NCBI GenBank assembly: GCA_013343275.1
Contig: CP046106.1
Span: forward strand, 768,001-832,000
Source of the DNA: Candidatus Nanohaloarchaea archaeon
Lineage (GTDB): Archaea > Nanohalarchaeota > Nanosalinia > Nanosalinales > Nanosalinaceae
Direction: 5' to 3'
DNA: 64,000 nucleotides
Shown: positions 26,389 to 43,306 of the stretch, in pieces
Numbering within the stretch: position 1 is the first letter of the stretch
Layout of the letters: every line of letters begins with the position of its first letter
Notes under the pieces: generated by a model
What the model saw: only the letters and a program-made list of their open reading frames with translations
Told to the model about the DNA's origin: nothing
Database searches by the model: none
Translations under genes and position numbers: made by a program

Positions 26389-26952
26389 ATGGATTTGAGC
26401 GATATTAATCCGAGTTTCAAGCAGATTGCTGCAGCGATGGCAGTAGTTTTCTTGCTGATTACAGGCCTTAATACTATGCTTGCGCCTGATGGAGGTTATG
26501 CCGGCGATTTAGCCGATACTATTTCCAACAACGATAATTCTAACAACGGGGATGCACAGAACCAGTCTCAGGATCAGACAGATCCTTACTATGAGAAGGC
26601 CACTGATGATTCTACCAGTTCCGACAGCGGCAACAGTGATGGTTCCGGGTCTCTGAATGAGACTGAGAAGACGAAGATCGAGAACAACTTTGAAGGTTAT
26701 GTAAATGCCAGCAACCGTGATAACGGCATCTATCTTGATAGGAAGGCTGTTGCCGGAGAATGGAACAATATTCAGGTGATGTACAATGGTAATCCTGTTG
26801 AAGGTGCCGAAGTGCTGGTGAACGGCCAGAGTATAGGTGCTACTGGAGAATATGGTGGCGTCTACTTCAAGGTTCCACAGGCCGATCGTATAACTGTGAG
26901 GACGACTACTGAAAACCTTGGAACTGTTGAGAATACTTACAAGGTGTACTGA
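26389..26952 (+). CDS. Membrane-anchored protein with a single A-type Ig-like module
   Basis: N-terminal TM segment and acidic linker; YNGNPVEGAEVLVNGQSIGATGEYGGVYFKVP matches modules in A1/A2. Confidence 0.75.
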   Translation: MDLSDINPSFKQIAAAMAVVFLLITGLNTMLAPDGGYAGDLADTISNNDNSNNGDAQNQSQDQTDPYYEKATDDSTSSDSGNSDGSGSLNETEKTKIENNFEGYVNASNRDNGIYLDRKAVAGEWNNIQVMYNGNPVEGAEVLVNGQSIGATGEYGGVYFKVPQADRITVRTTTENLGTVENTYKVY

Positions 26953-32272: not shown

Positions 32273-32542
32273 ATGGAAGATGACAAAGCTTGGGAAATAA
32301 TCGAGAACCCTCACATGACAGAACAGGCAATGGACATGATTGACGAAGAGAACAAGCTTGTTCTCATGGTAGATCTCGACGCAAACAAGAACCAGGTAGA
32401 AGACGCAGTACAGACACTATTTGATGTTGAAGTAACCAAAGTAAATACCAACATCACACCGCAGGCCCAGAAAAAGGCCTACGTAAAACTCTCACAGAGC
32501 GACTCCGCGATGGATGTCGCAACCGAACTAGGTATGATGTAA
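32273..32542 (+). CDS. rpl23: 50S ribosomal protein uL23
   Basis: TEQAM...ENKL, VNT and KKAYVKL. Confidence 0.96.
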   Translation: MEDDKAWEIIENPHMTEQAMDMIDEENKLVLMVDLDANKNQVEDAVQTLFDVEVTKVNTNITPQAQKKAYVKLSQSDSAMDVATELGMM

Positions 32543-32544
32543 GA

Positions 32545-32601
32545 ATGAAGAAAATCGCAGATTTTCAGAGTAGCAGAAAACACAGAGGTGTTTTCAACTA
32601 A
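32545..32601 (+). repeat. Dual-hairpin micro-ORF cassette copy 1 (rpl23 to rpl2); peptide MKKIADFQSSRKHRGVFN
   Basis: GAAAATC-GCA-GATTTTC and GAAAACAC-AGAG-GTGTTTTC; the TAA overlaps the rpl2 ATG (TAATG). Confidence 0.8.
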
Positions 32602-33302
32602 TGGGAAGTCCACTAAGACAACAACGAAGAGGAAAAGGATCTCCGAACTACCAGTCTAACTCTCATAAATCCAAGGGAGATGTAGAGACAAAAAGAGCAG
32701 AAACTCAGGGAACAGTAGTAGATCTAGTACACGACCCAGGAAGAACATCCCCTGTAGCAGTAGTAGAGTTCGAGGACGGAGAAGAAAGAAACATCCTAGC
32801 GCCAGAAGGCCTAGCAGTAGGCGACACAATCGAGCTAGGAGTATCCGCAGAAGTCAAACCAGGAAACACACTTCCTGTAGGAGAGATCCCAGAAGGAGTA
32901 CCAATCCACAATCTAGAACTCCAGCCGAACGACGGCGGCCAGATCGCCAGAAGCAGCGGAACATACGCATTCGTCGTAACACACGAAAAAGATGGGGTAA
33001 GAGTAAAGCTTCCAAGCGGAGACTTCAAAAAGTTGAATACTAGCTGCCGTGCAACAATTGGAAAAGTAGCAGGCGGCGGAAGAAAGGAGAAACCGTTCGT
33101 AAAGGCCGGAAACAAGTCCAAGGCTATGAAGGCCAGAGGCAAGGCCTATCCGAAGGTCTCCGGCGTAGCAATGAACGCAGTAGACCACCCATTCGGTGGA
33201 TCCGCAAAACCAGGAAAAGCAAAGACAGTTTCCAAGCACGCCTCACCAGGGCGTAAAGTCGGAAACATCGGCGCAAGCCGCAGCGGAAAGAAGAAAGAGT
33301 AA
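32601..33302 (+). CDS. rpl2: 50S ribosomal protein uL2
   Basis: HDPGRT, RSSGT and GVAMNAVDHPFGG. Confidence 0.98.
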   Translation: MGSPLRQQRRGKGSPNYQSNSHKSKGDVETKRAETQGTVVDLVHDPGRTSPVAVVEFEDGEERNILAPEGLAVGDTIELGVSAEVKPGNTLPVGEIPEGVPIHNLELQPNDGGQIARSSGTYAFVVTHEKDGVRVKLPSGDFKKLNTSCRATIGKVAGGGRKEKPFVKAGNKSKAMKARGKAYPKVSGVAMNAVDHPFGGSAKPGKAKTVSKHASPGRKVGNIGASRSGKKKE

Positions 33303-33313
33303 GGTGATCAATT

Positions 33314-33694
33314 ATGGCAGACGAAGACTTTACATTCAGAGGAAAAACAATGGACGAACTCCGAGACATGGATCTCGAAGAGTTCGCCGACCTCCTCGAT
33401 GCAAGAGGCCGAAGAAAGATTCAGAGAGGCCTCAGAGAGGACGAGGAGAAGATCCTCGAAGATCTCGAGGAAAAAGACACAGTCAAAACCCACAGAAGAG
33501 GGATGATAGTAGTACCGAAGATGGTAGGAAACACCCTTCAGGTCTACAACGGACAGAGGTTCATCGAAGTAGAAGTCGAGGCACAGATGCTCGGCCACTA
33601 CCTCGGAGAATTCGCAAGAACCCGAAAAGAAGTCGAACACAGCGCACCAGGACTTGGTGCAACACGTTCGTCCAAACACATCCCGCTCAAGTGA
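33314..33694 (+). CDS. rps19: 30S ribosomal protein uS19
   Basis: FTFRG, KTHRR, MLGHYLGEF and GATRSSKHIPLK. Confidence 0.97.
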   Translation: MADEDFTFRGKTMDELRDMDLEEFADLLDARGRRKIQRGLREDEEKILEDLEEKDTVKTHRRGMIVVPKMVGNTLQVYNGQRFIEVEVEAQMLGHYLGEFARTRKEVEHSAPGLGATRSSKHIPLK

Positions 33695-33702
33695 TTTAAC
33701 CT

Positions 33703-34113
33703 ATGGAACTTGACGCACACCAAGCATTTGCACAGGGCCGAAACATGCCTGTATCATGGAAGGACTGCACAGAAGTCGGACGCTTCATCAAAGGCGACTC
33801 TGTAGAGAAAGCAGAGAGAAAGCTCGAGAAAGTAATCGAGAAAGAACTCGCAGTACCCTACACAAAGTTCGACAGCGATGTCGGCCACAGAAGCGGACAT
33901 GGAGACTCCGGAAGATACCCGGAGAAAGCATCCAAGGAAATCCTGGAAGTTCTCAGATCTGCAGCATCAAATGCAGAGCACGAAGGCCTCAACCCTGGTG
34001 CACTTGAAGTACAGAACGTCATCACCAACAAAGGCCAAGAAATGAGAACTCCCGGAAGACATCCTGGAGAGACAAAAGCAGCACACGTAAAAATAATTGT
34101 AGGAGAGCGATAA
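33703..34113 (+). CDS. rpl22: 50S ribosomal protein uL22
   Basis: VSWK, VGHR, GRYPEKA and NAE; canonical position. Confidence 0.95.
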   Translation: MELDAHQAFAQGRNMPVSWKDCTEVGRFIKGDSVEKAERKLEKVIEKELAVPYTKFDSDVGHRSGHGDSGRYPEKASKEILEVLRSAASNAEHEGLNPGALEVQNVITNKGQEMRTPGRHPGETKAAHVKIIVGER

Positions 34114-34114
34114 T

Positions 34115-34168
34115 ATGACCGAAAATCAGAGATTTTCTGGGCATGCAAAAGACCGAGGTGGTCTTTGA
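34115..34168 (+). repeat. Dual-hairpin micro-ORF cassette copy 2 (rpl22 to rps3); peptide MTENQRFSGHAKDRGGL
   Basis: GAAAATC-AGA-GATTTTC and AAAGACC-GAGGT-GGTCTTT; the TGA abuts the rps3 ATG. Confidence 0.75.
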
Positions 34169-35233
34169 ATGCAAGAGAAAAAATTCATTCAGAAAGGAGC
34201 ACGTAAGGTAAGACTTCACGAGTTCCTTGAAGAAGAACTTGAAGGCGCAGGATACAGTCACGCAGACCTGGTAAGAACACCTACATCAGCAAAAATCGTG
34301 ATCTACGCACAGAGACCGGGCCTCGTCATCGGAAGAGGGGGTTCCAGGATCAAGGAACTCACAGCAGATCTCGAAGAAGAATTCGACTTCGATAACCCAC
34401 AGATCGAGGTTAACGAGATCGAAGAACCTGATGCAGATGCAGAAGTAGTAGCAAAGAGCATCGCAAACTGGCTTGAGAAAGGAGGCCACGCCAAACGTGT
34501 AGGATACACCTACATCAGAAGAATGAAGGAAGCAGGAGTAACAGGAGCAGAAGTAGAGATCACAGGAAAGCTCTCCGGAAACAGAGGCCGTACAGAGAAG
34601 TTCTCATTCGGATACGTAAAGAGATGCGGAAACACCTCTAAGGAAAACGTGGATAAAGGATACGAACTGGCCCGTACAAAGCCAGGAGCAATCGGAGTCA
34701 AAGTACGCATGATGAAGGAAATGCCGGACTTCATGCACAGAGACGTCGATGTCAGCGAGGAAATCCTCCACGAATCAGAAGTCTCAGAAGAATCACAGAT
34801 CAAGTCCGACAGAATCCAGCAGGTACTGGAAGAAGCAGAAAGCATGACTTCCTCCGAACTTGAGAGAGCAATCGAAGAGAAGGCAGAGACAATAGAGACA
34901 GGAGACATCTCCAAAGAAGAAGTCAGAGAGGCCTTCGAAGCAAGAGAGGAATCAGAGCCAGAAGAAGTCGAAGCCGAAGAACCAGAAGAGTCTGAATCTG
35001 AAGAAGCATCTTCTGAGGAGCAATCTTCCGAAGAGGAAGAGGACACAGAAGACTCATCTGAACAGGAAGAGACTGAAGAGACGGATGTAGAGGAAATTGT
35101 CTCAGGAACCATCAGCGACGCAAAGGACGCAATCTCAGAAATGGAGGATCCTGACTACGGCGCAATTCTACAGGCCGAGAAAGCCAACAAAAACCGAACA
35201 ACCTTTATTGACTGGCTTGAATCCCAGCAATAA
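34169..35233 (+). CDS. rps3: 30S ribosomal protein uS3 with long acidic C-terminal extension
   Basis: RPGLVIGRGG KH motif, GKLSG and KPGAIGVKV. Confidence 0.97.
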   Translation: MQEKKFIQKGARKVRLHEFLEEELEGAGYSHADLVRTPTSAKIVIYAQRPGLVIGRGGSRIKELTADLEEEFDFDNPQIEVNEIEEPDADAEVVAKSIANWLEKGGHAKRVGYTYIRRMKEAGVTGAEVEITGKLSGNRGRTEKFSFGYVKRCGNTSKENVDKGYELARTKPGAIGVKVRMMKEMPDFMHRDVDVSEEILHESEVSEESQIKSDRIQQVLEEAESMTSSELERAIEEKAETIETGDISKEEVREAFEAREESEPEEVEAEEPEESESEEASSEEQSSEEEEDTEDSSEQEETEETDVEEIVSGTISDAKDAISEMEDPDYGAILQAEKANKNRTTFIDWLESQQ

Positions 35234-35262
35234 ATAAAAGGAACTAACAGAAGTGATTAACC

Positions 35263-35460
35263 GTGTCAGAACTTTCAATCTCTGAACTCAGAGAAAAAGA
35301 CGCCTCCGAACTCAAACAGGACCTTACAGATCTACAGAAGGAACTTGTACAGGAAAGAGGCCAGATAGAAGTCGGAGGATTTGCCGACAACCCTGGCCGA
35401 CTCGGAGAAATGAAGAAAACCATCGCACGTATCAAAACAGTTCTCAACGAACGCCAATAA
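35263..35460 (+). CDS. rpl29: 50S ribosomal protein uL29
   Basis: NPGRLGEMKKTIARIKT. Confidence 0.95.
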   Translation: MSELSISELREKDASELKQDLTDLQKELVQERGQIEVGGFADNPGRLGEMKKTIARIKTVLNERQ

Positions 35461-35469
35461 AGAATTATA

Positions 35470-35778
35470 ATGTCAGATCTCAATCCCAACAGCGGACTAC
35501 CCGACGAACTCGACGTCACCGACCAACTAGCAAGATCAGAACAGAAAATCACTGTAAAGATCGACACAAGAAGCTTCGGCAAAGAAGTCACAGTAGTCGA
35601 AGGCCTTGGAGAAGAAATCAACCTCGATGACCTATCCTCCAAACTCAAGTCCAAACTTGCATGCGGAGGAACAGTCAAAGACGGCCACATCGAACTCCAG
35701 GGCGACCACACACGTCGAATCGAAGACGTCCTCGCAGACCAGGGATTCGACAAAGAAAACATCGAAATCCAGAGATAA
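35470..35778 (+). CDS. Translation initiation factor SUI1/aIF1
   Basis: GKEVTVVEG and LKSKLACGGTVKDGHIELQGDH. Confidence 0.95.
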   Translation: MSDLNPNSGLPDELDVTDQLARSEQKITVKIDTRSFGKEVTVVEGLGEEINLDDLSSKLKSKLACGGTVKDGHIELQGDHTRRIEDVLADQGFDKENIEIQR

Positions 35779-35872
35779 AATCATCCTCTGGGCCTGTTCA
35801 CATCTCCCTTTTTTACTTTCTACCTAGAAACCAACAGTTTCAAGTTGATACCTGCATAAAATCTAACTGGCT

Positions 35873-36616
35873 ATGAAGGCAACAATTCTGGGTTCAGGAG
35901 ACCCTCTAGGAATGCCGGTACCTATGTGTAAATGCAAGTACTGTAGAAAAGGCCCTGAAAGATTGAGAGCAGGCCTTAAGGTGGAGACAGAGGATTCAAC
36001 AGTTGTTTTCGATATAGGCCCTGATCTCCGTCAACAGCTTATCTCAACTGATACTTCGGATGTAGATGCCTTTTTCGCAACTCACGCTCATTTCGATCAC
36101 TTTGGAGGCCTTCCTGAATTAAGTAATCTTGACGTATTTGCTGATGCCGAAATCTCTATCTATGGTAGTGAAGAGGTTCAGAACTACATTGAAGATGTTT
36201 ACAGCTGGATAGATATCGATTACACAGTCTTCGAAGGCAGTACAGAGATCGGAGATCTAACTGTAGAGGCCTTCCCGGTAGAGCACTCGGAGTTCCTTCC
36301 AATGCAGGGTTACGCCGTTGAAAGCTGGGGCAAGAAGGTTGTGTACATACCTGATCTCAAATCCCTTCCGGAAACAGATGTCTACAGGGATGCAGACGTT
36401 CTATTTATTGATGGAATGTACCTGTTCGAGAAACACATGGAAGATGACGAGGATCACGCAGCGAAGGAGGAATTAAAGGCCGAGATAGAGAAATGCAACG
36501 CAGAAAAAGTAGTGCTCTTAGGGATGTCGGAACACTTCAACGAAATGACTGTGGAAGAAGAGAAAGAAAAAACCAGGTACGAGATAGGGAAAGACTTCAA
36601 AGAATACTCTCTCTAG
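35873..36616 (+). CDS. Metallo-beta-lactamase fold hydrolase (PhnP-like)
   Basis: ILGSG...VPMCKCKYC, DIGPDLRQQ, THAHFDHFGG and VEH. Confidence 0.88.
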   Translation: MKATILGSGDPLGMPVPMCKCKYCRKGPERLRAGLKVETEDSTVVFDIGPDLRQQLISTDTSDVDAFFATHAHFDHFGGLPELSNLDVFADAEISIYGSEEVQNYIEDVYSWIDIDYTVFEGSTEIGDLTVEAFPVEHSEFLPMQGYAVESWGKKVVYIPDLKSLPETDVYRDADVLFIDGMYLFEKHMEDDEDHAAKEELKAEIEKCNAEKVVLLGMSEHFNEMTVEEEKEKTRYEIGKDFKEYSL

Positions 36617-36625
36617 TTAACTAAT

Positions 36626-36901
36626 ATGCCAATAACACCAGAAAACCTCCCGAAACACGAACTCATAGGCCTCCATGTAGAGGTAGTTGAGTCAACAGAT
36701 GAGACTCTCGAAGGCCTTGAGGGAGAGGTTATGGATGAAACCAAGTCCATGCTGAGAATCGACGGGAAACAGATGCAGAAAAAGAACTGCACGTTTCTCT
36801 TCGAGATACCTTCAGGAGAGGAGGTAGAGGTAGATGGGGAGCTTATTGCGAAAAGGCCTGAAGAGCGTACAGGCATGAAACTGCCGGAAAAATACCGGTA
36901 A
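36626..36901 (+). CDS. rnp1: RNase P protein component 1 (Rpp29/POP4)
   Basis: HELIGL, GEVMDETK and RPEER. Confidence 0.93.
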   Translation: MPITPENLPKHELIGLHVEVVESTDETLEGLEGEVMDETKSMLRIDGKQMQKKNCTFLFEIPSGEEVEVDGELIAKRPEERTGMKLPEKYR

Positions 36902-36940
36902 AGGCCTTTCTTTGAGTTCCACTTACTACTTCAAAGTACC

Positions 36941-37170
36941 CTTTTAAAGTTTGTCTTTGAATGTGTTCTTACGAACCTCAAAACTTGATTGAGGTCTTGA
37001 TAACCGCTGGAAGTCGAGTCTTTGGCTCGATACTTTCGGTGGTCTGCTTGGAAAACCCACGTTTGTGAGTGTTTTTGCTGCAGACTCTCCGATTTGCTAT
37101 TTCTGGCGGTTGTAGAACCTCCAATCAGATCAATAAACAAACAATTAGACAATCGAAAGGTGAACAAGGC
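36941..37170 (+). ncRNA. Promoter plus about 200 nt structured leader RNA upstream of rps17 (candidate r-protein leader)
   Basis: TTTTAAA at 36942; hairpin 36975-36995; 14 bp helix 37000-37013/37100-37113 enclosing two stems. Confidence 0.55.
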
Positions 37171-37461
37171 TTGACTGAAACAAATGAATCCAGCGAATAC
37201 CCAATCAGGGGCGGAGTATTTACAGGAACAGTAGAATCCACGAAAATGCAGAAATCCGCAACTGTACGATGGGAACACACACAGGAAATTCCGAAATACG
37301 AGAGAAAAGAGAGAAGAAACACAAAGATCACAGTCCACGTCCCTGAAGACATGGAGATCGAGGAAGGCGACACAGTAAAGGTCGGAGAGACCAAGCCAAT
37401 CTCAAAAACCAAGAGCCATGTAGTAATGGAAAAAATAACCGACGAAGAAAACGAGGAGTAG
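37171..37461 (+). CDS. rps17: 30S ribosomal protein uS17
   Basis: TTG start after SD AAGGTGA; KMQKSATV, PKYERKE and GETKPISKTK. Confidence 0.95.
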   Translation: MTETNESSEYPIRGGVFTGTVESTKMQKSATVRWEHTQEIPKYERKERRNTKITVHVPEDMEIEEGDTVKVGETKPISKTKSHVVMEKITDEENEE

Positions 37462-37468
37462 ATTCTAA

Positions 37469-37867
37469 ATGAAGCCACTAGGAGCAAGCATTACAAGAGG
37501 CCTGGACCAGGGCGCAGAACTAACATGCGCAGACAACTCCGGAGCTAAAAAACTGAAGATCATCGGAGTTAAAAGCCAGAAAGGCCGAAGGTCAAGAAGA
37601 AACTCCGCAGGAATCGCAGACAAAGTAGTAGTAAGAGTCCTCAAAGGAGACGAGGAAACAAAACACGAAATATTCGAAGCAGTAGTTGTCAGACAGAGAC
37701 AGGAATTCGAAAGACCAGAAGGAACACGAGTAAAATTCGAAGACAACGCAGCAGTACTAGTAGAAGAAAACGGGCTTCCAAAAGGTTCAGTAACCCGAGG
37801 CCCAATTGCAAAAGAAGTAGTACAGCGATACTCCCCGATCGGGAAGATCGCATCAAAGGTGGTGTAA
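37469..37867 (+). CDS. rpl14: 50S ribosomal protein uL14
   Basis: CADNSGAK, FEDNAAV and GPIAKE. Confidence 0.98.
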   Translation: MKPLGASITRGLDQGAELTCADNSGAKKLKIIGVKSQKGRRSRRNSAGIADKVVVRVLKGDEETKHEIFEAVVVRQRQEFERPEGTRVKFEDNAAVLVEENGLPKGSVTRGPIAKEVVQRYSPIGKIASKVV

Positions 37868-37869
37868 CG

Positions 37870-37920
37870 ATGAAAATCGCAGATTTTCGGAGTAGCAGAA
37901 AACAAGGTGTTTTCAACTAA
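37870..37920 (+). repeat. Dual-hairpin micro-ORF cassette copy 3 (rpl14 to rpl24); peptide MKIADFRSSRKQGVFN
   Basis: GAAAATC-GCA-GATTTTC and GAAAACA-AGG-TGTTTTC; TAATG overlap with rpl24. Confidence 0.8.
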
Positions 37921-38558
37921 TGAGCAACAACGAATGGAGCAGAAGCTGGAACTCAAGTAAGAACCCGACGAAGCAGAGAAAATACCGTAGAAACGCACCA
38001 CAGCATGTAAAAGATAAACTAGTGTCAGCAAATCTGGCCTCAGAACTTAGAGAAGAGCTAGGAACCAGAAACCTCAATCTCAAAGTAGGAGACAGAGTAG
38101 AGATCATGAGAGGCGACGACAAAGGAACTTCCGGAGTAATCAGCAGCATCGACAGAGAGAACGGAACAGTAACAGTAAACGGCGTAGAGAACGAACGTAC
38201 AGATGGCACATCCAGAGAAAAAACACTACAGCCATCCAACCTCCAGATCCAGGCACTCAACCTCGAAAACGTCTCAAGAATCGAAGCCTACGATGTAGAA
38301 GATACAGAAGCAATCGAAGTAGATGAAGAAGAACTAGAGGAACTTGAGGAAGAAGAGGAAGAAAATGCAATGATGCAGCAAATGCAGGGCGGAGGAGAAG
38401 CCGCAGACATCAGTGAAGAAGAACTCGAAGAGATTGAAGAAGAAATAGAAGAAGAGGAAACTGAAGCTGAAGAAGAGAAAGACACCGAATCCGAAGAGGA
38501 TTCAGACGAAACCACAGAAGAATCCGATGAAGAATCGGAAGAGAAAGGTGAGCAATAA
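37920..38558 (+). CDS. rpl24: 50S ribosomal protein uL24 with acidic C-terminal tail
   Basis: SKNPTKQRK, GDRVEIMRG and QPSNL. Confidence 0.96.
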   Translation: MSNNEWSRSWNSSKNPTKQRKYRRNAPQHVKDKLVSANLASELREELGTRNLNLKVGDRVEIMRGDDKGTSGVISSIDRENGTVTVNGVENERTDGTSREKTLQPSNLQIQALNLENVSRIEAYDVEDTEAIEVDEEELEELEEEEEENAMMQQMQGGGEAADISEEELEEIEEEIEEEETEAEEEKDTESEEDSDETTEESDEESEEKGEQ

Positions 38559-39215
38559 ATGGGATTCCAAAAACGACTATCAGCACCAAAACACTATCCT
38601 ATCGACAGGAAAAACAACTCTTACGTAGTAGAACTCAAAGGTTCAAGAAGCAAAGACCAGGCTATTCCAACAGCACTATTCCTTAGAGATGTGCTTGGAT
38701 ACGCAGACACAGTAAGCGAAGCCAAGAAAATAGTAAACGATGGCAAAGTCCAGAGAAACGGCGACACAGTAAGAGATATCAAAGAAGGCCTAGGAGTACT
38801 CGACGTAGTCGAAGTAGACGGCCTCGAAGAGACATACAGAATAGTAAAAGACAGCAAAGGCCTCAAATTCATCGCAGTAGAAGATGACAAGGTCCTTGCC
38901 AAGGTAACAGGAAAGAGAGCAGAAGGAGATGAATACGTTTACAGCCTCCACAACGGCGAGAACTACAGAACCAAAGATGAGTTCGAAGTTCAGAGCTCAC
39001 TGATCTTCAACGGAGGAGTCAAGGAAGTACCTCTTGAAGAAGGCGCAGAGGTTCTAATTACAGGAGGCCAGCACGCAGGAGAAACTGCAGAGCTAGTAGA
39101 AGTTAACAGAAGTGGCCTCAAAACCTCAACAGCAACAGTTGAAGAAGCCGACAGACAGTTCGATACACGGCTTGAAAACATTGTAGCAGTTGAAGACGTC
39201 AAGGTGACAGAATAA
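38559..39215 (+). CDS. rps4e: 30S ribosomal protein eS4
   Basis: KRLSAP, LRDVLGYA, LHNGEN and ITGGQHAG. Confidence 0.95.
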   Translation: MGFQKRLSAPKHYPIDRKNNSYVVELKGSRSKDQAIPTALFLRDVLGYADTVSEAKKIVNDGKVQRNGDTVRDIKEGLGVLDVVEVDGLEETYRIVKDSKGLKFIAVEDDKVLAKVTGKRAEGDEYVYSLHNGENYRTKDEFEVQSSLIFNGGVKEVPLEEGAEVLITGGQHAGETAELVEVNRSGLKTSTATVEEADRQFDTRLENIVAVEDVKVTE

Positions 39216-39727
39216 TGACTAACGAGATGAAGCAGATAGAGATTGCAAAAATAACAGTAAATACCTCGGCTGGAGAGGTAGGAGACGAAGTAGAGAAAGG
39301 ATTTACACTTCTCGAAAAGCTTACCGGGAAGCAGCCGGTCAGAACATCCTCGAAAGACGCATCCAAAACGTTCGGACTGAGAGAAGGCCTGAACATTGGA
39401 GCAAAAGTAACACTTCGAGGAGAAGAAGCAAGAGAGTTCCTGGAAAAAGTACTACCTGCGGCAGACAACCAGATCTCTGCAGAATCATTCGACGGAAACG
39501 GAAACTTCGCATTCGGAATTGGAGAATACATCGATGTACCAGGAATGGACTATGATGCCGATATCGGCATGAAAGGATTCGAGGTAGTGGTCAACCTGGA
39601 GAGACCAGGATACAGAGTAAAGCGGAGAGATCACAAACCGGATGAAATCGGCAAAGACCACAAAGTCGATGACGAAGAAGCCAAGGACTTCGTCGAAGAA
39701 GAACTTGGAGCAGAGGTGGTAGAATAA
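39215..39727 (+). CDS. rpl5: 50S ribosomal protein uL5
   Basis: IGAKVTLRG, FDGNGNFAFGI and RPGYRV. Confidence 0.97.
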   Translation: MTNEMKQIEIAKITVNTSAGEVGDEVEKGFTLLEKLTGKQPVRTSSKDASKTFGLREGLNIGAKVTLRGEEAREFLEKVLPAADNQISAESFDGNGNFAFGIGEYIDVPGMDYDADIGMKGFEVVVNLERPGYRVKRRDHKPDEIGKDHKVDDEEAKDFVEEELGAEVVE

Positions 39728-39786
39728 TGATTAGAAATTCGGAGAATTTCATGATCACGCAGAAAACACGAGGTGTTTTCGAGTGA
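39727..39786 (+). repeat. Dual-hairpin micro-ORF cassette copy 4 (rpl5 to rps14); peptide [19 protein letters not shown]
   Basis: GAAATTC-GGA-GAATTTC and GAAAACAC-GAG-GTGTTTTC; the ATG overlaps the rpl5 TAA and the TGA overlaps the rps14 GTG (GTGA). Confidence 0.8.
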
Positions 39787-40007
39787 GCTACGAAGCAGTA
39801 CTGGAACAGATCAAACACAAGAAAGGAAAAAGACAGAAATTCGAGAAACACAACGCTCCAAAGGAAAGAGACTACGGAAAATCCAAGAAAGAATGCAGAA
39901 GATGCGGAAGAACAGGTAGAGGAGTCATCAGCAAATACGATCTCAACTACTGCAGACAGTGCTTCCGTGAAATCGCAGAAGAACTCGGATTCGAACAGCT
40001 CAACTAG
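39783..40007 (+). CDS. rps14: 30S ribosomal protein uS14 (zinc-binding)
   Basis: CRRCG...YCRQCFRE. Confidence 0.96.
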
Positions 40008-40019
40008 GTGACAAAGAAA

Positions 40020-40409
40020 ATGCAGCAAGATACATTCAGCGACGCAATGTCCTCCATCAACAACGCAGTAGATGCAGGCAACGAATACGCAACAATCAGT
40101 CCAACAAGCAGCCTGGTCAAGAACCTACTGCTTAAGCTACAGGAACTGGAATACATCGGCGTTTTCGAATATGTAGAAGACGGCCAGGGAGGCAAATTCC
40201 GAGTAGAAGTCAAAAACCAGGTAAACGAATGCCAGTCCGTAAAACCACGGTTCTCCGTACAGAACGAAGAATACGAGAAATGGGCCAAGAGATACCTACC
40301 GGCTCAAGGATTCGGAGAGCTACTGGTAACCACAAGCCACGGCCTCATGACACACTACGAGGCCCGTGAAGAAGGAATCGGCGGAAAACTACTAGGTTAC
40401 GTCTACTGA
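40020..40409 (+). CDS. rps8: 30S ribosomal protein uS8
   Basis: YIGVFE, KPRF, YLPA, TTSHG and GGKLLGYVY; ATG 40020 follows SD GGTGA. Confidence 0.96.
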   Translation: MQQDTFSDAMSSINNAVDAGNEYATISPTSSLVKNLLLKLQELEYIGVFEYVEDGQGGKFRVEVKNQVNECQSVKPRFSVQNEEYEKWAKRYLPAQGFGELLVTTSHGLMTHYEAREEGIGGKLLGYVY

Positions 40410-40424
40410 AGGTGAACAAGAAAA

Positions 40425-40958
40425 ATGACAGAACTAACATACGAGCTACCAGAAGGATTCGACGTAGAATACACAGATGACGGAGTCCTAAAGGTAGAAG
40501 GAAACGGAGAAGAAACAGAGAAGCAAATCCAGCACTCGCTGGTAGAAGTAGAAGTAGACGGAGATACAGTAAAGTTCACGCCACTAAGAGAGAAGAAAGA
40601 TATAGTCAGCGTGGCAAAGACATTTAGATCCCACCTAGAAAACATGGTAGAAGGCCTGCAGAACTCGCATGTCTACCATCTAAAAGGAGTATACGCACAC
40701 TTCCCGATGACAATCAAGAAGGAAGGCGATGAAGTAGTAGTCGAGAACTTCATGGGAGAAAGACACCCAAGAAGAGCAGACATCATGGAAGGCGTAGACG
40801 TAAACGTAGACGGCGACGAAATCACAGTAAAAGGCCCTAACAAGGATAAGGTAAGTCAGACAGCAGCACGGATCGAACAGCTTTCCCGCAAAGGAAACCG
40901 CGATCCACGTACTTTCCAGGACGGAATCTACATAACAGAGGTGACTCGAAGTGAGTAA
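40425..40958 (+). CDS. rpl6: 50S ribosomal protein uL6
   Basis: YAHFPM, NFMGE and DPRTFQDGIY. Confidence 0.97.
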   Translation: MTELTYELPEGFDVEYTDDGVLKVEGNGEETEKQIQHSLVEVEVDGDTVKFTPLREKKDIVSVAKTFRSHLENMVEGLQNSHVYHLKGVYAHFPMTIKKEGDEVVVENFMGERHPRRADIMEGVDVNVDGDEITVKGPNKDKVSQTAARIEQLSRKGNRDPRTFQDGIYITEVTRSE

Positions 40959-41286
40959 AGACTTCAAAAGACAGGAAACACACAAGAGAAACAGAGTAAA
41001 GAGCTCATGGAGAAAGCCTATCGGCCACCACTCCAATGCACGGCTCAAGAAGAAAAGCGCCCAGAAAATGCCAAAGGCAGGATTCAGAACGCCTAAGGAA
41101 GATAGAGGCAAACACCCTTCAGGATACGAAGAAGTACTTGTACACAATACTGACGATCTTGAGGAAGTAGATTCAGAGACCGAAGCTGCACGGATCGGCT
41201 CCACAGTAGGAGGCCGCAAAAGAGAACAGATAATCGAGAAAGCAGACGATCTTGAAATCAAAGTACTGAACAGAGGTGAAGAATAA
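40951..41286 (+). CDS. rpl32e: 50S ribosomal protein eL32
   Basis: FKRQ, WRKP, HPSGYEEVLV and VGGRKR. Confidence 0.96.
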   Translation: MSKDFKRQETHKRNRVKSSWRKPIGHHSNARLKKKSAQKMPKAGFRTPKEDRGKHPSGYEEVLVHNTDDLEEVDSETEAARIGSTVGGRKREQIIEKADDLEIKVLNRGEE

Positions 41287-41726
41287 TGGATCTAAAAAAC
41301 CAGAGAAGAATGGCAGCAGACATCATGGATGTCGGAGAAGACCGCGTATGGATCGATCCTGACAACCAGGAGAAAGTAGATGAAGCAATTACACGTCAGG
41401 ATATCAGAAACCTGATCGAAGGAGACACCATTCAGAAGAAAGAAAAGAAAGGAACAAGCAAAGGCCGAGCACGAGAGAAAAAGAAGCAGAAGAAGAAAGG
41501 ACGCAGGAAAGGCCAGGGCAGCAGACAGGGAAAGAAAGGAGCCCGTAAATCCGACAAGAAGAAATGGATGGAAAATATTCGAGCAATCCGATCAGAGCTC
41601 AAAGAAATGAGAGATAACGAAGAAATTACACAGGAACAGTACAGAGACCTGTACGACAGAGCAAAGGGAGGATTCTTTAGAGACACAAAACACCTCAAAA
41701 ACTACGTAGAGAACAAAATGGAGTGA
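41286..41726 (+). CDS. rpl19e: 50S ribosomal protein eL19
   Basis: QRRMAA, RVWIDP, GSRQGKKGAR and AKGGFF. Confidence 0.97.
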   Translation: MDLKNQRRMAADIMDVGEDRVWIDPDNQEKVDEAITRQDIRNLIEGDTIQKKEKKGTSKGRAREKKKQKKKGRRKGQGSRQGKKGARKSDKKKWMENIRAIRSELKEMRDNEEITQEQYRDLYDRAKGGFFRDTKHLKNYVENKME

Positions 41727-41731
41727 GTACA

Positions 41732-42241
41732 ATGGCAGAGACATCAAATTACAAAGTACCTTTCAGAAGGAGAAGAGAACAGAAAACAGACTATGAACAA
41801 CGGCTGAAGCTGGTTAAATCTGGAAAACCACGAGCAGTAGTAAGAACAAGCAACCAGCACACAAGATCACACCTTGCACACTACAAGCGAGAAGGTGACG
41901 TAAACGAGGCCCAGACACTCAGCAAAGAACTAGAAGAATACGGCTGGGAACATAACACAGGCAACCTGCCAGCAGCATACCTGACAGGATACCTGACAGC
42001 CAAAAAAGCAGACTCAGAAGAAGCAATCCTCGACATAGGTCTCAGGGAACAGAAAACAGGAGGCCGAATCTTCGCAGCAGTAAAAGGAATGAGAGACGCA
42101 GGCCTTGAAGTACCTGCAGGAGAAGAAGTATTCCCTGCTGAAGGAAGAATTAGAGGAGAACACATCGAAGAAATGAAAGAAGACTCAAACATTACAGAAA
42201 ACTTTGAAGAAGTCAAAGAAAACATCGAAGGTGAATTTTAA
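41732..42241 (+). CDS. rpl18: 50S ribosomal protein uL18
   Basis: FRRRREQKTDY and GNLPAAYLTG. Confidence 0.96.
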   Translation: MAETSNYKVPFRRRREQKTDYEQRLKLVKSGKPRAVVRTSNQHTRSHLAHYKREGDVNEAQTLSKELEEYGWEHNTGNLPAAYLTGYLTAKKADSEEAILDIGLREQKTGGRIFAAVKGMRDAGLEVPAGEEVFPAEGRIRGEHIEEMKEDSNITENFEEVKENIEGEF

Positions 42242-42912
42242 TGGCAGAACAGGAAATAGAAGAAGAAATCTGGACTCCAAAGACAAAACTCGGTAGAGCA
42301 GTGGCCAACGGCCAGATCACAACTATTGAACAGGCTCTAGACCATGAAAGACCGATCATGGAGCCAGAGATCGTCGACCAGCTGACAGATCTGGATGAAG
42401 AAGTAATGCTTATCGGAGGAACTCCGGGAAAGGGAGGCGGAAAAAGAAGAACAGTCTCCAAGAGAACAGCAAGAATGCACAAGTCAGGCGCAAGGTACAG
42501 TTCCAACGCAATGACAGTACTAGGAAACCGTAACGGAGTAATAGGACTAGGCGTAGGAGAATCAGACGATACACGAGCGGCAATCGACGACGCAAATAGA
42601 AACGCCAAGCTTAACCTGATCAAAGTACCTAGAGGAAACGGATCATGGGAGGACAAAGGAGATCACAAGGCCTCCATCCCATTCCAGGTAGAAGGAAAGT
42701 CAGGATCTGTAACAGTAGAGCTTAAACCTGCTCCAAGAGGAACAGGCCTAGTCGCATCCGACGACGTCAAGAAAGTAATGGAGCTCGCAGGAATCGACAA
42801 CATCTGGGTCAAATCCAGAGGAACAACAAGAACACGAGAGAACCTGATCAGAGCAACATTCAACGCTCTGGAGAAACTCTCCGAATATCAGCATGATGGT
42901 GACAACCAATGA
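42241..42912 (+). CDS. rps5: 30S ribosomal protein uS5
   Basis: WTPKTKLG, RGNGSWE and PAPRGTGL. Confidence 0.97.
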   Translation: MAEQEIEEEIWTPKTKLGRAVANGQITTIEQALDHERPIMEPEIVDQLTDLDEEVMLIGGTPGKGGGKRRTVSKRTARMHKSGARYSSNAMTVLGNRNGVIGLGVGESDDTRAAIDDANRNAKLNLIKVPRGNGSWEDKGDHKASIPFQVEGKSGSVTVELKPAPRGTGLVASDDVKKVMELAGIDNIWVKSRGTTRTRENLIRATFNALEKLSEYQHDGDNQ

Positions 42913-42962
42913 TGAAAATCGCAGATTTTCGTGATGCAGAAAACACAGGTGTTTTCGAATGA
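42909..42962 (+). repeat. Dual-hairpin micro-ORF cassette copy 5 (rps5 to rpl30); peptide MMKIADFRDAENTGVFE
   Basis: GAAAATC-GCA-GATTTTC and GAAAACA-CAGG-TGTTTTC; ATGA overlaps at both ends. Confidence 0.8.
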
Positions 42963-43306
42963 TTGCAGCAATCAGAGTAAGAGGAGACGTCGACGCAAGC
43001 GACAAAGCAAGTGCAACACTTCAGAACATGAACCTTGAAAGGAGAAATCAGTGCGTAGTATACGAGGACACTGATTCGATTCGAGGAATGCTGAACAAGG
43101 CCAAAGACTACATCACATATGGCCAGGTATCTGATGAAGCGCTTGAACTGCTTGAAGAAAGGAAAGGATCAGAAATTGAATCTGGCGATGTAATTAATCT
43201 AACACCTCCAAGCAGAGGTTATAAGGATACGAAGAGAAATGTAAATCAGGGCGGAAGCCTTGGTGAAAGAGAAAACCTAGATAACCTGATCGAGAAAATG
43301 GTGTAA
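42959..43306 (+). CDS. rpl30: 50S ribosomal protein uL30
   Basis: IRVRG, GMLNKAKDYITYG and LTPPSRG. Confidence 0.95.
   Translation: MIAAIRVRGDVDASDKASATLQNMNLERRNQCVVYEDTDSIRGMLNKAKDYITYGQVSDEALELLEERKGSEIESGDVINLTPPSRGYKDTKRNVNQGGSLGERENLDNLIEKMV

Follow-up and report, generated by a model that had tools for sequence, protein, structure and literature searches.

Short intergenic repeats whose own open reading frame (ORF) runs into the adjacent genes are known from bacteria. The mycobacterial MIRU elements, as summarised in sections of a review (Supply et al. 1997, cited through Delihas 2011, PMC3184786), measure 40-100 bp, occur in tens of copies at intergenic positions of polycistronic operons, and contain an ORF whose ends overlap the neighbouring genes. 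The same sections mention empty and filled sites between related species, tetranucleotide direct repeats flanking the insert, and internal inverted repeats. Roles in mRNA stabilisation and in control of downstream translation have been proposed for MIRU, according to an excerpt of PMC7884335. Here we describe what is probably an archaeal element of this kind, the relay cassette, five copies of which occupy spacers of the ribosomal protein operon of Candidatus Nanohaloarchaea archaeon. The stretch analysed, hereafter the window, comprises 64,000 nt (GenBank CP046106.1, positions 768,001-832,000) of a genome of 915,886 bp (G000).

By analogy, MIRU may be considered the closest precedent. The likeness, drawn from description in the excerpted sources, lies in a short intergenic repeat inside operons with a small gene-overlapping ORF and with empty and filled sites. 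Sampled cassettes lie between co-oriented ORFs of one operon in 33 of 40 cases, and the ORF ends overlap the neighbours at 68 of 76 junctions. As portrayed in these sources, MIRU is bacterial (Actinomycetota), G+C rich and often organised in variable number tandem repeat (VNTR) arrays, whereas the cassette is archaeal and A-U rich, consists of two GAAA...UUUC hairpins with a Shine-Dalgarno (SD) sequence built into hairpin 2, and brings its own downstream start codon; no sequence relation is expected. An earlier reading of the window from its letters alone, the sequence-only reading, knew of no description of such an element. Literature searches likewise found none for nanohaloarchaea, but the concept has the MIRU precedent in the cited part of PMC3184786. 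We regard the cassette as archaeal, lineage-specific and structurally distinct, and as belonging to a kind already known, not as categorically new.

A second point of reference is termination-reinitiation at archaeal overlapping gene pairs. Excerpts of two studies (Huber et al. 2019, PMC6728339; PMC10666635) describe overlaps of -4 and -1 nt (ATGA, TAATG) with the SD in the upstream ORF, enrichment of such pairs among subunits of heteromeric complexes, and loss of coupling at ~20 nt or more. In the excerpt from the Haloferax volcanii study (PMC10666635), reinitiation is about halved at a stop-start gap of 13-14 nt and abolished at 22-23 nt, and tight overlaps are enriched among complex subunits. 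The cassettes use the same overlaps; the cases described in the excerpts comprise two real genes, whereas the cassette interposes an ORF of 16-22 codons that has no conserved peptide. A third parallel is the synthetic bicistronic design (BCD), in which, according to excerpts of PMC5995908 and 10.1101/2023.02.09.527918, a short leader cistron has an SD, a second SD lies inside the leader 3' end, and translation of the leader, through ribosomal helicase activity, opens structure at the second start. As depicted there, BCD is engineered, bacterial, located at the transcript 5' end and without defined hairpins, whereas the cassette is a natural repeat, found mostly between cistrons and with structure of its own. 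A BCD-like layout is present in the cassettes, with an SD for the micro-ORF in 58/68, a second SD in 67/68, and a leader position lacking an upstream gene in 7/40. In the original 2013 design the leader, said to be ~16 codons long, reportedly has its stop overlapping the gene start.

REP/REPIN sequences and miniature inverted-repeat transposable elements (MITEs) resemble the cassettes, in the excerpts of PMC3116915 and PMC3184786, as short hairpin repeats of variable copy number in close relatives, located within operons and coding for no transposase. In the same excerpts REPs number hundreds, are extragenic and have no ORF reading through them, whereas cassettes number tens of copies and are spanned by an ORF. 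The Neisseria REP2 also holds a promoter and acts at 5' ends, and the cited part of PMC3184786 describes no gene-bridging relay ORF for it.

The five cassettes of the window are flanked by the genes for L23/L2, L22/S3, L14/L24, L5/S14 and S5/L30 (Pfam). They are listed below in window coordinates, with micro-ORF starts given relative to the end of the upstream stop codon; R1 is a covariance model built from 12 copies.

32545-32601, forward strand: cassette 1 micro-ORF in the L23/L2 spacer, 18 amino acids, MKKIADFQSSRKHRGVFN then stop; ATG 2 nt past the L23 TAA, own TAA overlapping the L2 ATG (TAATG); R1 score 68.9 bits
32550-32566, forward strand: cassette 1 hairpin 1, GAAAATC-GCA-GATTTTC
32576-32595, forward strand: cassette 1 hairpin 2, GAAAACAC-AGAG-GTGTTTTC, with SD-like GAGGTG across loop and 3' arm
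34115-34168, forward strand: cassette 2 micro-ORF in the L22/S3 spacer, 17 amino acids, MTENQRFSGHAKDRGGL then stop; start at +1, TGA abutting the S3 ATG
34121-34137, forward strand: cassette 2 hairpin 1, GAAAATC-AGA-GATTTTC, in a reading frame different from that of cassette 1
34148-34166, forward strand: cassette 2 hairpin 2, AAAGACC-GAGGT-GGTCTTT, with compensatory differences from the other copies; the S3 start codon is paired within an outer GCAU/AUGC helix
37870-37920, forward strand: cassette 3 micro-ORF in the L14/L24 spacer, 16 amino acids, MKIADFRSSRKQGVFN then stop; start at +2, TAATG at the L24 start
37872-37888, forward strand: cassette 3 hairpin 1
37898-37914, forward strand: cassette 3 hairpin 2, GAAAACA-AGG-TGTTTTC, with SD-like AGGTG
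39727-39786, forward strand: cassette 4 micro-ORF in the L5/S14 spacer, 19 amino acids; start overlapping the L5 stop (TAATG), stop overlapping the S14 GTG (GTGA)
39734-39750, forward strand: cassette 4 hairpin 1, GAAATTC-GGA-GAATTTC, with an A-U to U-A compensatory change, in the third reading frame
39762-39780, forward strand: cassette 4 hairpin 2, GAAAACAC-GAG-GTGTTTTC
42909-42962, forward strand: cassette 5 micro-ORF in the S5/L30 spacer, 17 amino acids, MMKIADFRDAENTGVFE then stop; ATGA overlap at each end
42914-42930, forward strand: cassette 5 hairpin 1
42939-42956, forward strand: cassette 5 hairpin 2, GAAAACA-CAGG-TGTTTTC

All five spacers are homologous (alignment A1) and have the two hairpins in common. 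Direct reading and ORF recomputation place the micro-ORF starts at -4 to +2 nt. Everything that the sequence-only reading had described of the five ATG micro-ORFs (16-19 amino acids, touching both flanking genes) was borne out on re-reading, as was its observation that the copies between them read hairpin 1 in all three frames. The frame-preserving 3-nt steps that it had noted between cassettes 1 and 3 are two in number, and the SD-like motifs that it had placed upstream are present as GGTG, GGAG or GAGG ahead of the micro-ORF start in at least four window copies.

The anatomy, hairpin covariation, distribution, empty and filled sites and ORF continuity given below are shown at the level of nucleotide sequence. 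From 5' to 3', hairpin 1 (consensus GAAAATC-N3-GATTTTC) begins 0-5 nt past the micro-ORF start codon and is followed by a short linker and by hairpin 2, which is variable in sequence, always of the form GAAA...UUUC, and carries a new SD (GAGGTG or GGTG) at the junction of loop and 3' arm. After a further 2-5 nt comes the stop codon, overlapping or abutting the downstream gene's start codon, which the element supplies, for a total of ~45-70 nt. The 16S rRNA of G000 ends in ...GGATCACCTCC, which makes genuine SD matches of the GAGGTG/GGTG motifs.

The hairpin 1 pattern GAAAATC-N3-GATTTTC has five exact matches in the window, and seven when up to two mismatches are allowed, compared with a shuffle mean of 1.09; seven was reached in 0 of 100 shuffles. 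Hairpin 1 pairing holds in 98.6% of alignment cells, double-sided changes occur at 5 of 7 pairs, and the observed covariation was reached by 0 of 500 shuffles. Across the family this hairpin is conserved in sequence as well as in structure. The arms of hairpin 2, compared copy by copy, vary in sequence and retain complementarity; hairpin 2 was judged per sequence, as MAFFT misaligned this helix (pairing 73.7% in alignment A4) and it is therefore poorly modelled in R1. Relative to dinucleotide shuffles, four of the five cassettes fold clearly better, with z = -3.2, -4.1, -2.3 and -3.6, and the fifth has z = -1.5. At the gathering threshold Rfam returned two tRNAs for the window and no family match to the cassettes, and at E ≤ 1 over 32400-43100 a single chance-level long non-coding RNA match, located away from the spacers. 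Two other identities were dropped on inspection only: a C/D-box small RNA, for which the box spacing is unsuited, and an archaeal promoter (BRE/TATA), for which the CGAAA-like motif is missing in half of the copies.

ORF continuity was scored on junctions chosen without reference to ORFs. One set took in the 43 operon spacers that measured 38-135 nt and contained one or more perfect hairpins; the other comprised the first 40 R1 matches outside G000 and outside the operon loci, of 182 non-G000 matches (195 in total). A junction passed when a single ORF started -12 to +20 nt from the upstream stop and its stop ended -3 to +4 nt of the downstream start; a version admitting chains of ORFs was too permissive, as some spacers passed it in up to 180 of 200 shuffles. 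The 106-nt L23/L2 spacer of relative L051 is masked (N) and was excluded from the ORF counts. In ~30 genomes 68 of 76 junctions passed, comprising 37/43 operon spacers (34/36 within the family) and 31 of the 33 sampled matches with both flanking ORFs. The continuity of the ORF across filled junctions is kept in these homologous copies. The sequence-only reading had proposed to look for homologous spacers that keep the hairpins and often lose the ATG or the frame; the copies were instead found to retain both in this large majority.

The stop-to-start offsets in the 68 passing junctions are -4 (33 cases), -1 (20), 0 (13) and +1 (2), and each of the nine possible pairings of hairpin frame with end offset is represented. 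The downstream boundary falls within the archaeal termination-reinitiation spacing (-8 to ~+10 nt) in 68/68, with an SD 4-mer 5-12 nt before the downstream start in 67/68. At the upstream boundary the starts lie mostly at -4 to +12 nt, with 59/68 at -11 to +10 nt of the stop and 9 at +11 to +16, and an SD 4-mer precedes the micro-ORF start in 58/68. The peptides are 16-22 amino acids long, or 32-35 where several hairpins are present; four such multi-hairpin spacers of 100-113 nt keep one ORF of 32-34 amino acids. Among the eight junctions that failed are a frameshifted copy with its stop a few nt inside the next gene, copies in which the stop precedes the start by 7-10 nt, and four spacers at the order level that are perhaps not true cassettes. 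Of the 40 sampled R1 matches, 33 lie between two co-oriented ORFs and seven have no upstream gene; in these seven the cassette would form a leader cistron with its own SD. A same-strand ORF of at least 55 codons begins a few nt from the 3' end of the element in 40/40.

Against the observed pass rate of 89%, mid-spacer insertion of 1 or 2 nt left 20.7% and 16.9% passing, respectively, and shuffling of the whole spacer left 25.6%. Hairpin-free same-strand spacers of G000 passed in 17 of 192 cases, a figure that depends on crude gene calls. Selection is seen to maintain the frame together with the terminal start/stop geometry, and the spread over frames, lengths and subfamilies is a stronger argument than the pass counts.

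The genome was searched by regular expression, nhmmer profile and R1, with E ≤ 1e-6 defining a strong copy. R1 finds 13 strong copies in G000, and since 8 of these lie outside the window, the restriction to the ribosomal operon implied by the title of the sequence-only reading does not hold. Its claim of a reusable cassette gains from the same covariance-model search, which it had proposed, through these 13 copies and many in relatives. Copies outside the window sit between the genes for Rrp4/Rrp41, L44e/S27e, topoisomerase VI B/A, RpoE'/Spt4 and Spt4/S24e, with further copies at pyruvate dehydrogenase E1 alpha/beta and at an aminotransferase/dehydrogenase pair. Two more locations are presumably S12/S7 and a junction between V-ATPase subunits, names that we take from the reading of termini, most others being from Pfam. 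At the gene pairs beyond the window each copy has a micro-ORF of the same stop/start geometry. The flanking genes encode subunits of complexes (ribosomal proteins, Rrp4/Rrp41, topoisomerase VI B/A, RpoE'/Spt4, E1 alpha/beta) and belong to the gene-pair class that relies on tight overlaps. Among the flanks we also presume V-ATPase, aIF2-gamma-like and EF-1alpha-like genes, named partly by recognition of N-termini and otherwise by Pfam.

Partial or unpartnered forms occur as well. A near-identical copy at genome positions 26722-26779 follows a gene stop and has no downstream partner, and its ORF runs on for 26 codons. A tail-only copy outside the window, at genome positions 214064-214106 on the reverse strand, has a 9-amino-acid ORF (MTETRGVFE, then stop) with an ATGA overlap and no hairpin 1; the right end of cassette 5 recurs there without change over ~21 nt around the junction, a stretch that takes in the first bases of the following gene. 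GAAA...UUUC hairpins without a bridging ORF, single or arrayed, are located at genome positions 434625-434720, 120888-120934, 508087-508129 and 542386-542458, immediately downstream of stop codons, between convergent genes and alongside a tRNA gene.

Across the order, 39 of 70 genomes have an R1 match at E ≤ 1e-6, with 0-17 copies each. The element is present in 35 of 49 genomes of its own family (excluding G000) and in 1/10, 2/8, 0/1 and 0/1 genomes of other families. The 14 family genomes lacking a copy at this threshold include some that are 96-99% complete. The exact two-hairpin pattern, searched in one genome for each of 185,579 species, gave 17 matching stretches, all in records labelled Nanohaloarchaea (including Nanosalina, Nanohalobium and 'Asbonarchaeaceae') or in unnamed archaeal metagenome-assembled genomes. 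Virus-borne spread was rejected, as the same pattern gave 0 matches in viral contigs.

Occupancy of individual junctions was followed in the S10-spc operon of 36 relatives, in which every junction was measured. Most junctions are tight (-8 to +20 nt). Longer spacers, either of ~46-77 nt or, where three or four hairpins are present, of 100-160 nt, occur here and there, at 19 junctions in all, and genomes differ in which of these are filled. The congener G001, whose L14 is 99% identical, has the L22/S3 copy only, and the other four window junctions are clean empty sites. On a concatenated ribosomal protein tree of 21 family genomes (three having been dropped for low coverage), 45 filled sites need at least 38 changes, about as many as shuffled labels, where 'filled' means any spacer of at least 38 nt and includes a few non-cassettes and one masked spacer. 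There is almost no phylogenetic signal in occupancy. Copy numbers within the genus of the window are 13, 1 and 6; together with the 14/49 family genomes at zero and the near lack of signal, they argue against the 'checkpoint every few genes' of the sequence-only reading.

Comparison of filled and empty sites indicates how the insert is seated. The native SD and start codon remain at the left, as the micro-ORF start, and the element adds a new start at the right. The start codons of downstream genes can therefore differ, since the element supplies them: S14 starts with ATG in cassette-free G001 and with GTG in the window, and L30 with GTG in cassette-free G001 and with ATG in the window. Direct repeats beside the insert are ATG, ATGA or ATGAC, codons that relay function would require anyway. 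Near-identical subfamilies are found at different junctions in different genera, one peptide type, for example, at three gene pairs, and copies at the same junction are 85-87% identical across genera (L5/S14 in G000 and G008; L14/L24 in G000 and G010). Spread and retention must both occur, because subfamilies cross gene pairs while some junction copies persist across genera. At the empty L6/L32e site of locus L053, a tandem ATGAATAA ATGAATAA(G) extends across both the stop of L6 and the start of L32e. In the congener (L051) a cassette occupies this junction, with a micro-ORF starting at the first tandem ATG, 8 nt before the end of the stop. The tandem may be a footprint or may be due to chance.

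Taken together, these observations incline us, with confidence just on the favourable side of even, to regard the five spacers as copies of a lineage-specific insertional repeat that is kept translationally transparent by a termination-reinitiation relay through the micro-ORF. In this mechanism a ribosome finishing the upstream gene would reinitiate on the micro-ORF, melt both hairpins in the course of 16-22 codons of translation, terminate at the downstream start and reinitiate there, aided by the SD of the element, such that each cassette would entail two successive termination-reinitiation events. A spacer of ~50 nt needs such a relay for coupling because an untranslated gap of 22-23 nt abolishes reinitiation in H. 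volcanii. Coupled, stoichiometric translation would in this way outlast an insertion that otherwise parts stop and start by ~50 nt. The element would be spread or lost at the DNA level, and copies between essential co-translated genes would persist only with the relay intact. With three reading frames in use across the same hairpin, the peptide as such is probably of no importance.

Several points weigh against the insertional relay. Its central step, translation of the micro-ORF, is predicted from sequence. Shuffling only the spacer interior, with ends and length kept, still passes 61%, so the missing internal stops owe much to composition, and the copies share ancestry, so their counts are not independent trials. 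A clean target-site duplication is not definable, as the flanking ATG and ATGA are also functionally demanded, and the 85-87% identity at the same junctions fits long constrained retention, i.e. host function, equally well as repeated insertion. A purely selfish insert would not be expected to favour highly expressed housekeeping operons so strongly, unless its target is the SD-ATG junction itself. Direct repeats of 15-17 nt of the upstream gene tail in two copies point to local duplication, not to transposition. Finally, no mobilising enzyme was found among the families searched in G000.

The two copies with tail repeats are as follows. At L007 2973-3045 on the reverse strand (genome ~676.6 kb) the last 17 nt of the upstream gene, comprising SD, spacer and stop/start, recur as the micro-ORF tail; at the L18/S5 junction of a relative (L052) the last 15 nt do so. 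In both, hairpin 2 has a 5' arm that can pair with this native end of the upstream gene. Some cassettes may accordingly originate from local duplication or be repaired by it.

The search for a mobilising enzyme covered several families in the single contig of G000, which is 96.5% complete. Y1_Tnp (PF01797) gave 0 matches, with control genomes matched; DDE_Tnp_1 and rve (Pfam) gave nothing; and a TnpB zinc-ribbon model gave two sub-threshold matches only. The cassette is accordingly not a REP/RAYT system, because no Y1 transposase was found in G000, and not a classical MITE, because it has no inverted termini and no partner insertion sequence (no DDE_Tnp_1, rve or Y1 in G000). Neither terminal inverted repeats nor a clear target-site duplication was seen in the cassettes. 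The one reverse transcriptase (RT) of G000 stands beside an Avd gene and a pair of 116-nt repeats of 84% identity, i.e. in a diversity-generating retroelement:

208397-211987 of the genome, outside the window: diversity-generating retroelement (locus L135), with, in the numbering of that locus, Avd at 608-949, RT at 1288-2283, and repeats at 23-138 and 977-1092

The repeats look like a variable and template repeat pair, and the best NCBIfam match of the RT is a group II-type RT, below its cut-off. RVT_1 was found in 7 of 70 genomes of the order, and mean copy number is 7.9 in RT-positive and 3.2 in RT-negative genomes, a comparison confounded by relatedness. The RT was rejected as the mobiliser, being part of the retroelement and absent in the element-rich genomes G024 (17 copies) and G008 (10 copies).

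Among the alternatives, the one that survives best, which we hold to be possible though doubtful, is a relay selected by the host for regulation, the model of the sequence-only reading. Downstream translation would be strictly dependent on relayed ribosomes, the hairpins would mask the two start sites, and a putative regulator might act at hairpin 1, so that translation, transcription and energy genes would come under common control or have their initiation equalised. The conserved architecture (68/76) and the family-wide conservation of the hairpin 1 sequence itself are consistent with this, as are the junction-specific types common to several genera and the flank bias to ribosomal protein, RNA polymerase/Spt4, exosome and, for genes named in part by recognition and so presumed, V-ATPase, aIF2-gamma-like and EF-1alpha-like genes. 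Cassettes are also far more structured than ordinary junctions, with a mean minimum free energy in 64-nt windows of -17.2 versus -9.8 kcal/mol. Predicted pairing of the start codon is moderately higher (0.45 versus 0.32), and extended predicted helices take in the micro-ORF AUG (cassettes 4 and 5) or the downstream start codon (cassettes 2 and 4). In contrast, the SD, half within the hairpin 2 loop, has a predicted pairing probability of 0.48, against 0.51 for ordinary tight junctions in these loci. The element is moreover dispensable (14/49 family genomes lack it, and the congener lacks four of five), its occupancy is nearly free of phylogenetic signal, copies also occur in 3' regions with no downstream partner, and what would be gained is unclear, as plain overlapping junctions already couple. 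The interpretation offered by the sequence-only reading consequently divides: the relay with its ORF continuity (68/76) stands, the operon checkpoint gives way before the patchy occupancy, and the proposed lock on the downstream ribosome-binding site (RBS) is not specifically supported, given SD pairing no higher than at ordinary junctions.

A related proposal, rather doubtful in our estimation, is that the cassette is a portable initiation module that targets start codons, brings its own SD and start, and now serves the translation, transcription and energy operons jointly as a co-opted cis-regulatory unit, with hairpin 1 as the putative regulator site. If true, it would be a prokaryotic counterpart of a growth-control mRNA motif that spreads by insertion.

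It is unlikely that the hairpins are the functional part, serving as mRNA stabilisers, processing sites or terminators in the manner of bacterial REP hairpins, with the micro-ORF as the price of placement between coupled genes. Hairpin covariation is strong, GAAA...UUUC hairpins do follow stop codons where genes end and are also located between convergent genes and beside a tRNA gene, and the excerpt of PMC7884335 has MIRU proposed to stabilise upstream mRNA. However, the stems are A-U rich and weak, and it is with start codons, and not with 3' ends, that the complete two-hairpin unit is associated, because all 40 sampled R1 matches precede, by a few nt, a same-strand ORF of at least 55 codons.

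That the micro-ORFs are genuine small-protein genes with functional peptides is highly improbable: they do possess SD, start and stop, and peptide types such as MKIADFR... and M.ENQRFSG... recur, but one hairpin read in three frames yields the unrelated peptides KIADF, ENQRFS and RNSENF, compensatory changes act at the RNA level, lengths range from 16 to 35 amino acids, and the peptide types merely track nucleotide subfamilies. An equally remote prospect is a chance artefact of composition, in which stop-poor, purine-rich spacers at start/stop-rich junctions mimic micro-ORFs; two or three stop-free frames in 28/76 spacers and the 61% of the interior shuffle speak for it, but the controls disfavour it, with 89% passing as observed but 17-21% when the frame is broken by 1-2 nt, 26% when the whole spacer is shuffled and 9% in hairpin-free spacers of the same genome, and with every stop in passing junctions at -4 to +1 of the start.

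With the insertional relay as the favoured reading, the cassettes constitute a series of natural experiments on archaeal coupling, in which the same gene pairs have a direct overlap in one genome and a 50- or 100-nt cassette in a close relative, with continuity of the ORF as the one constant (68/76 junctions). They argue that termination-reinitiation is strongly selected in these reduced genomes, and that even the main ribosomal protein operon tolerates two reinitiations in succession. Nature would also have come to the arrangement that was designed as the synthetic bicistronic RBS, and an archaeal member would join the little-noticed intercistronic repeats with bridging ORFs of which MIRU is an example. 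For annotation, the cassette spacers should not become small-protein gene calls.

Some proteins encoded next to the cassettes have unusual regions of their own. The C-termini of S3 (window 35084-35233) and S24e (L002 2477-2626, reverse strand) have a 49-amino-acid module in common (65% identity, E 2e-19), which ends in ...KNRTT(F/L)IDWLESQ, is placed after long acidic linkers, and is also found on an S3-like protein of another genome (L098). L24 (window 37920-38558) is 212 amino acids long, of which ~90 residues form an extremely acidic (E/D-rich) C-terminal extension, and S3, at 354 amino acids, has a similar acidic insert. Such acidic regions are typical of a salt-in proteome, yet they are unusually long for these proteins.

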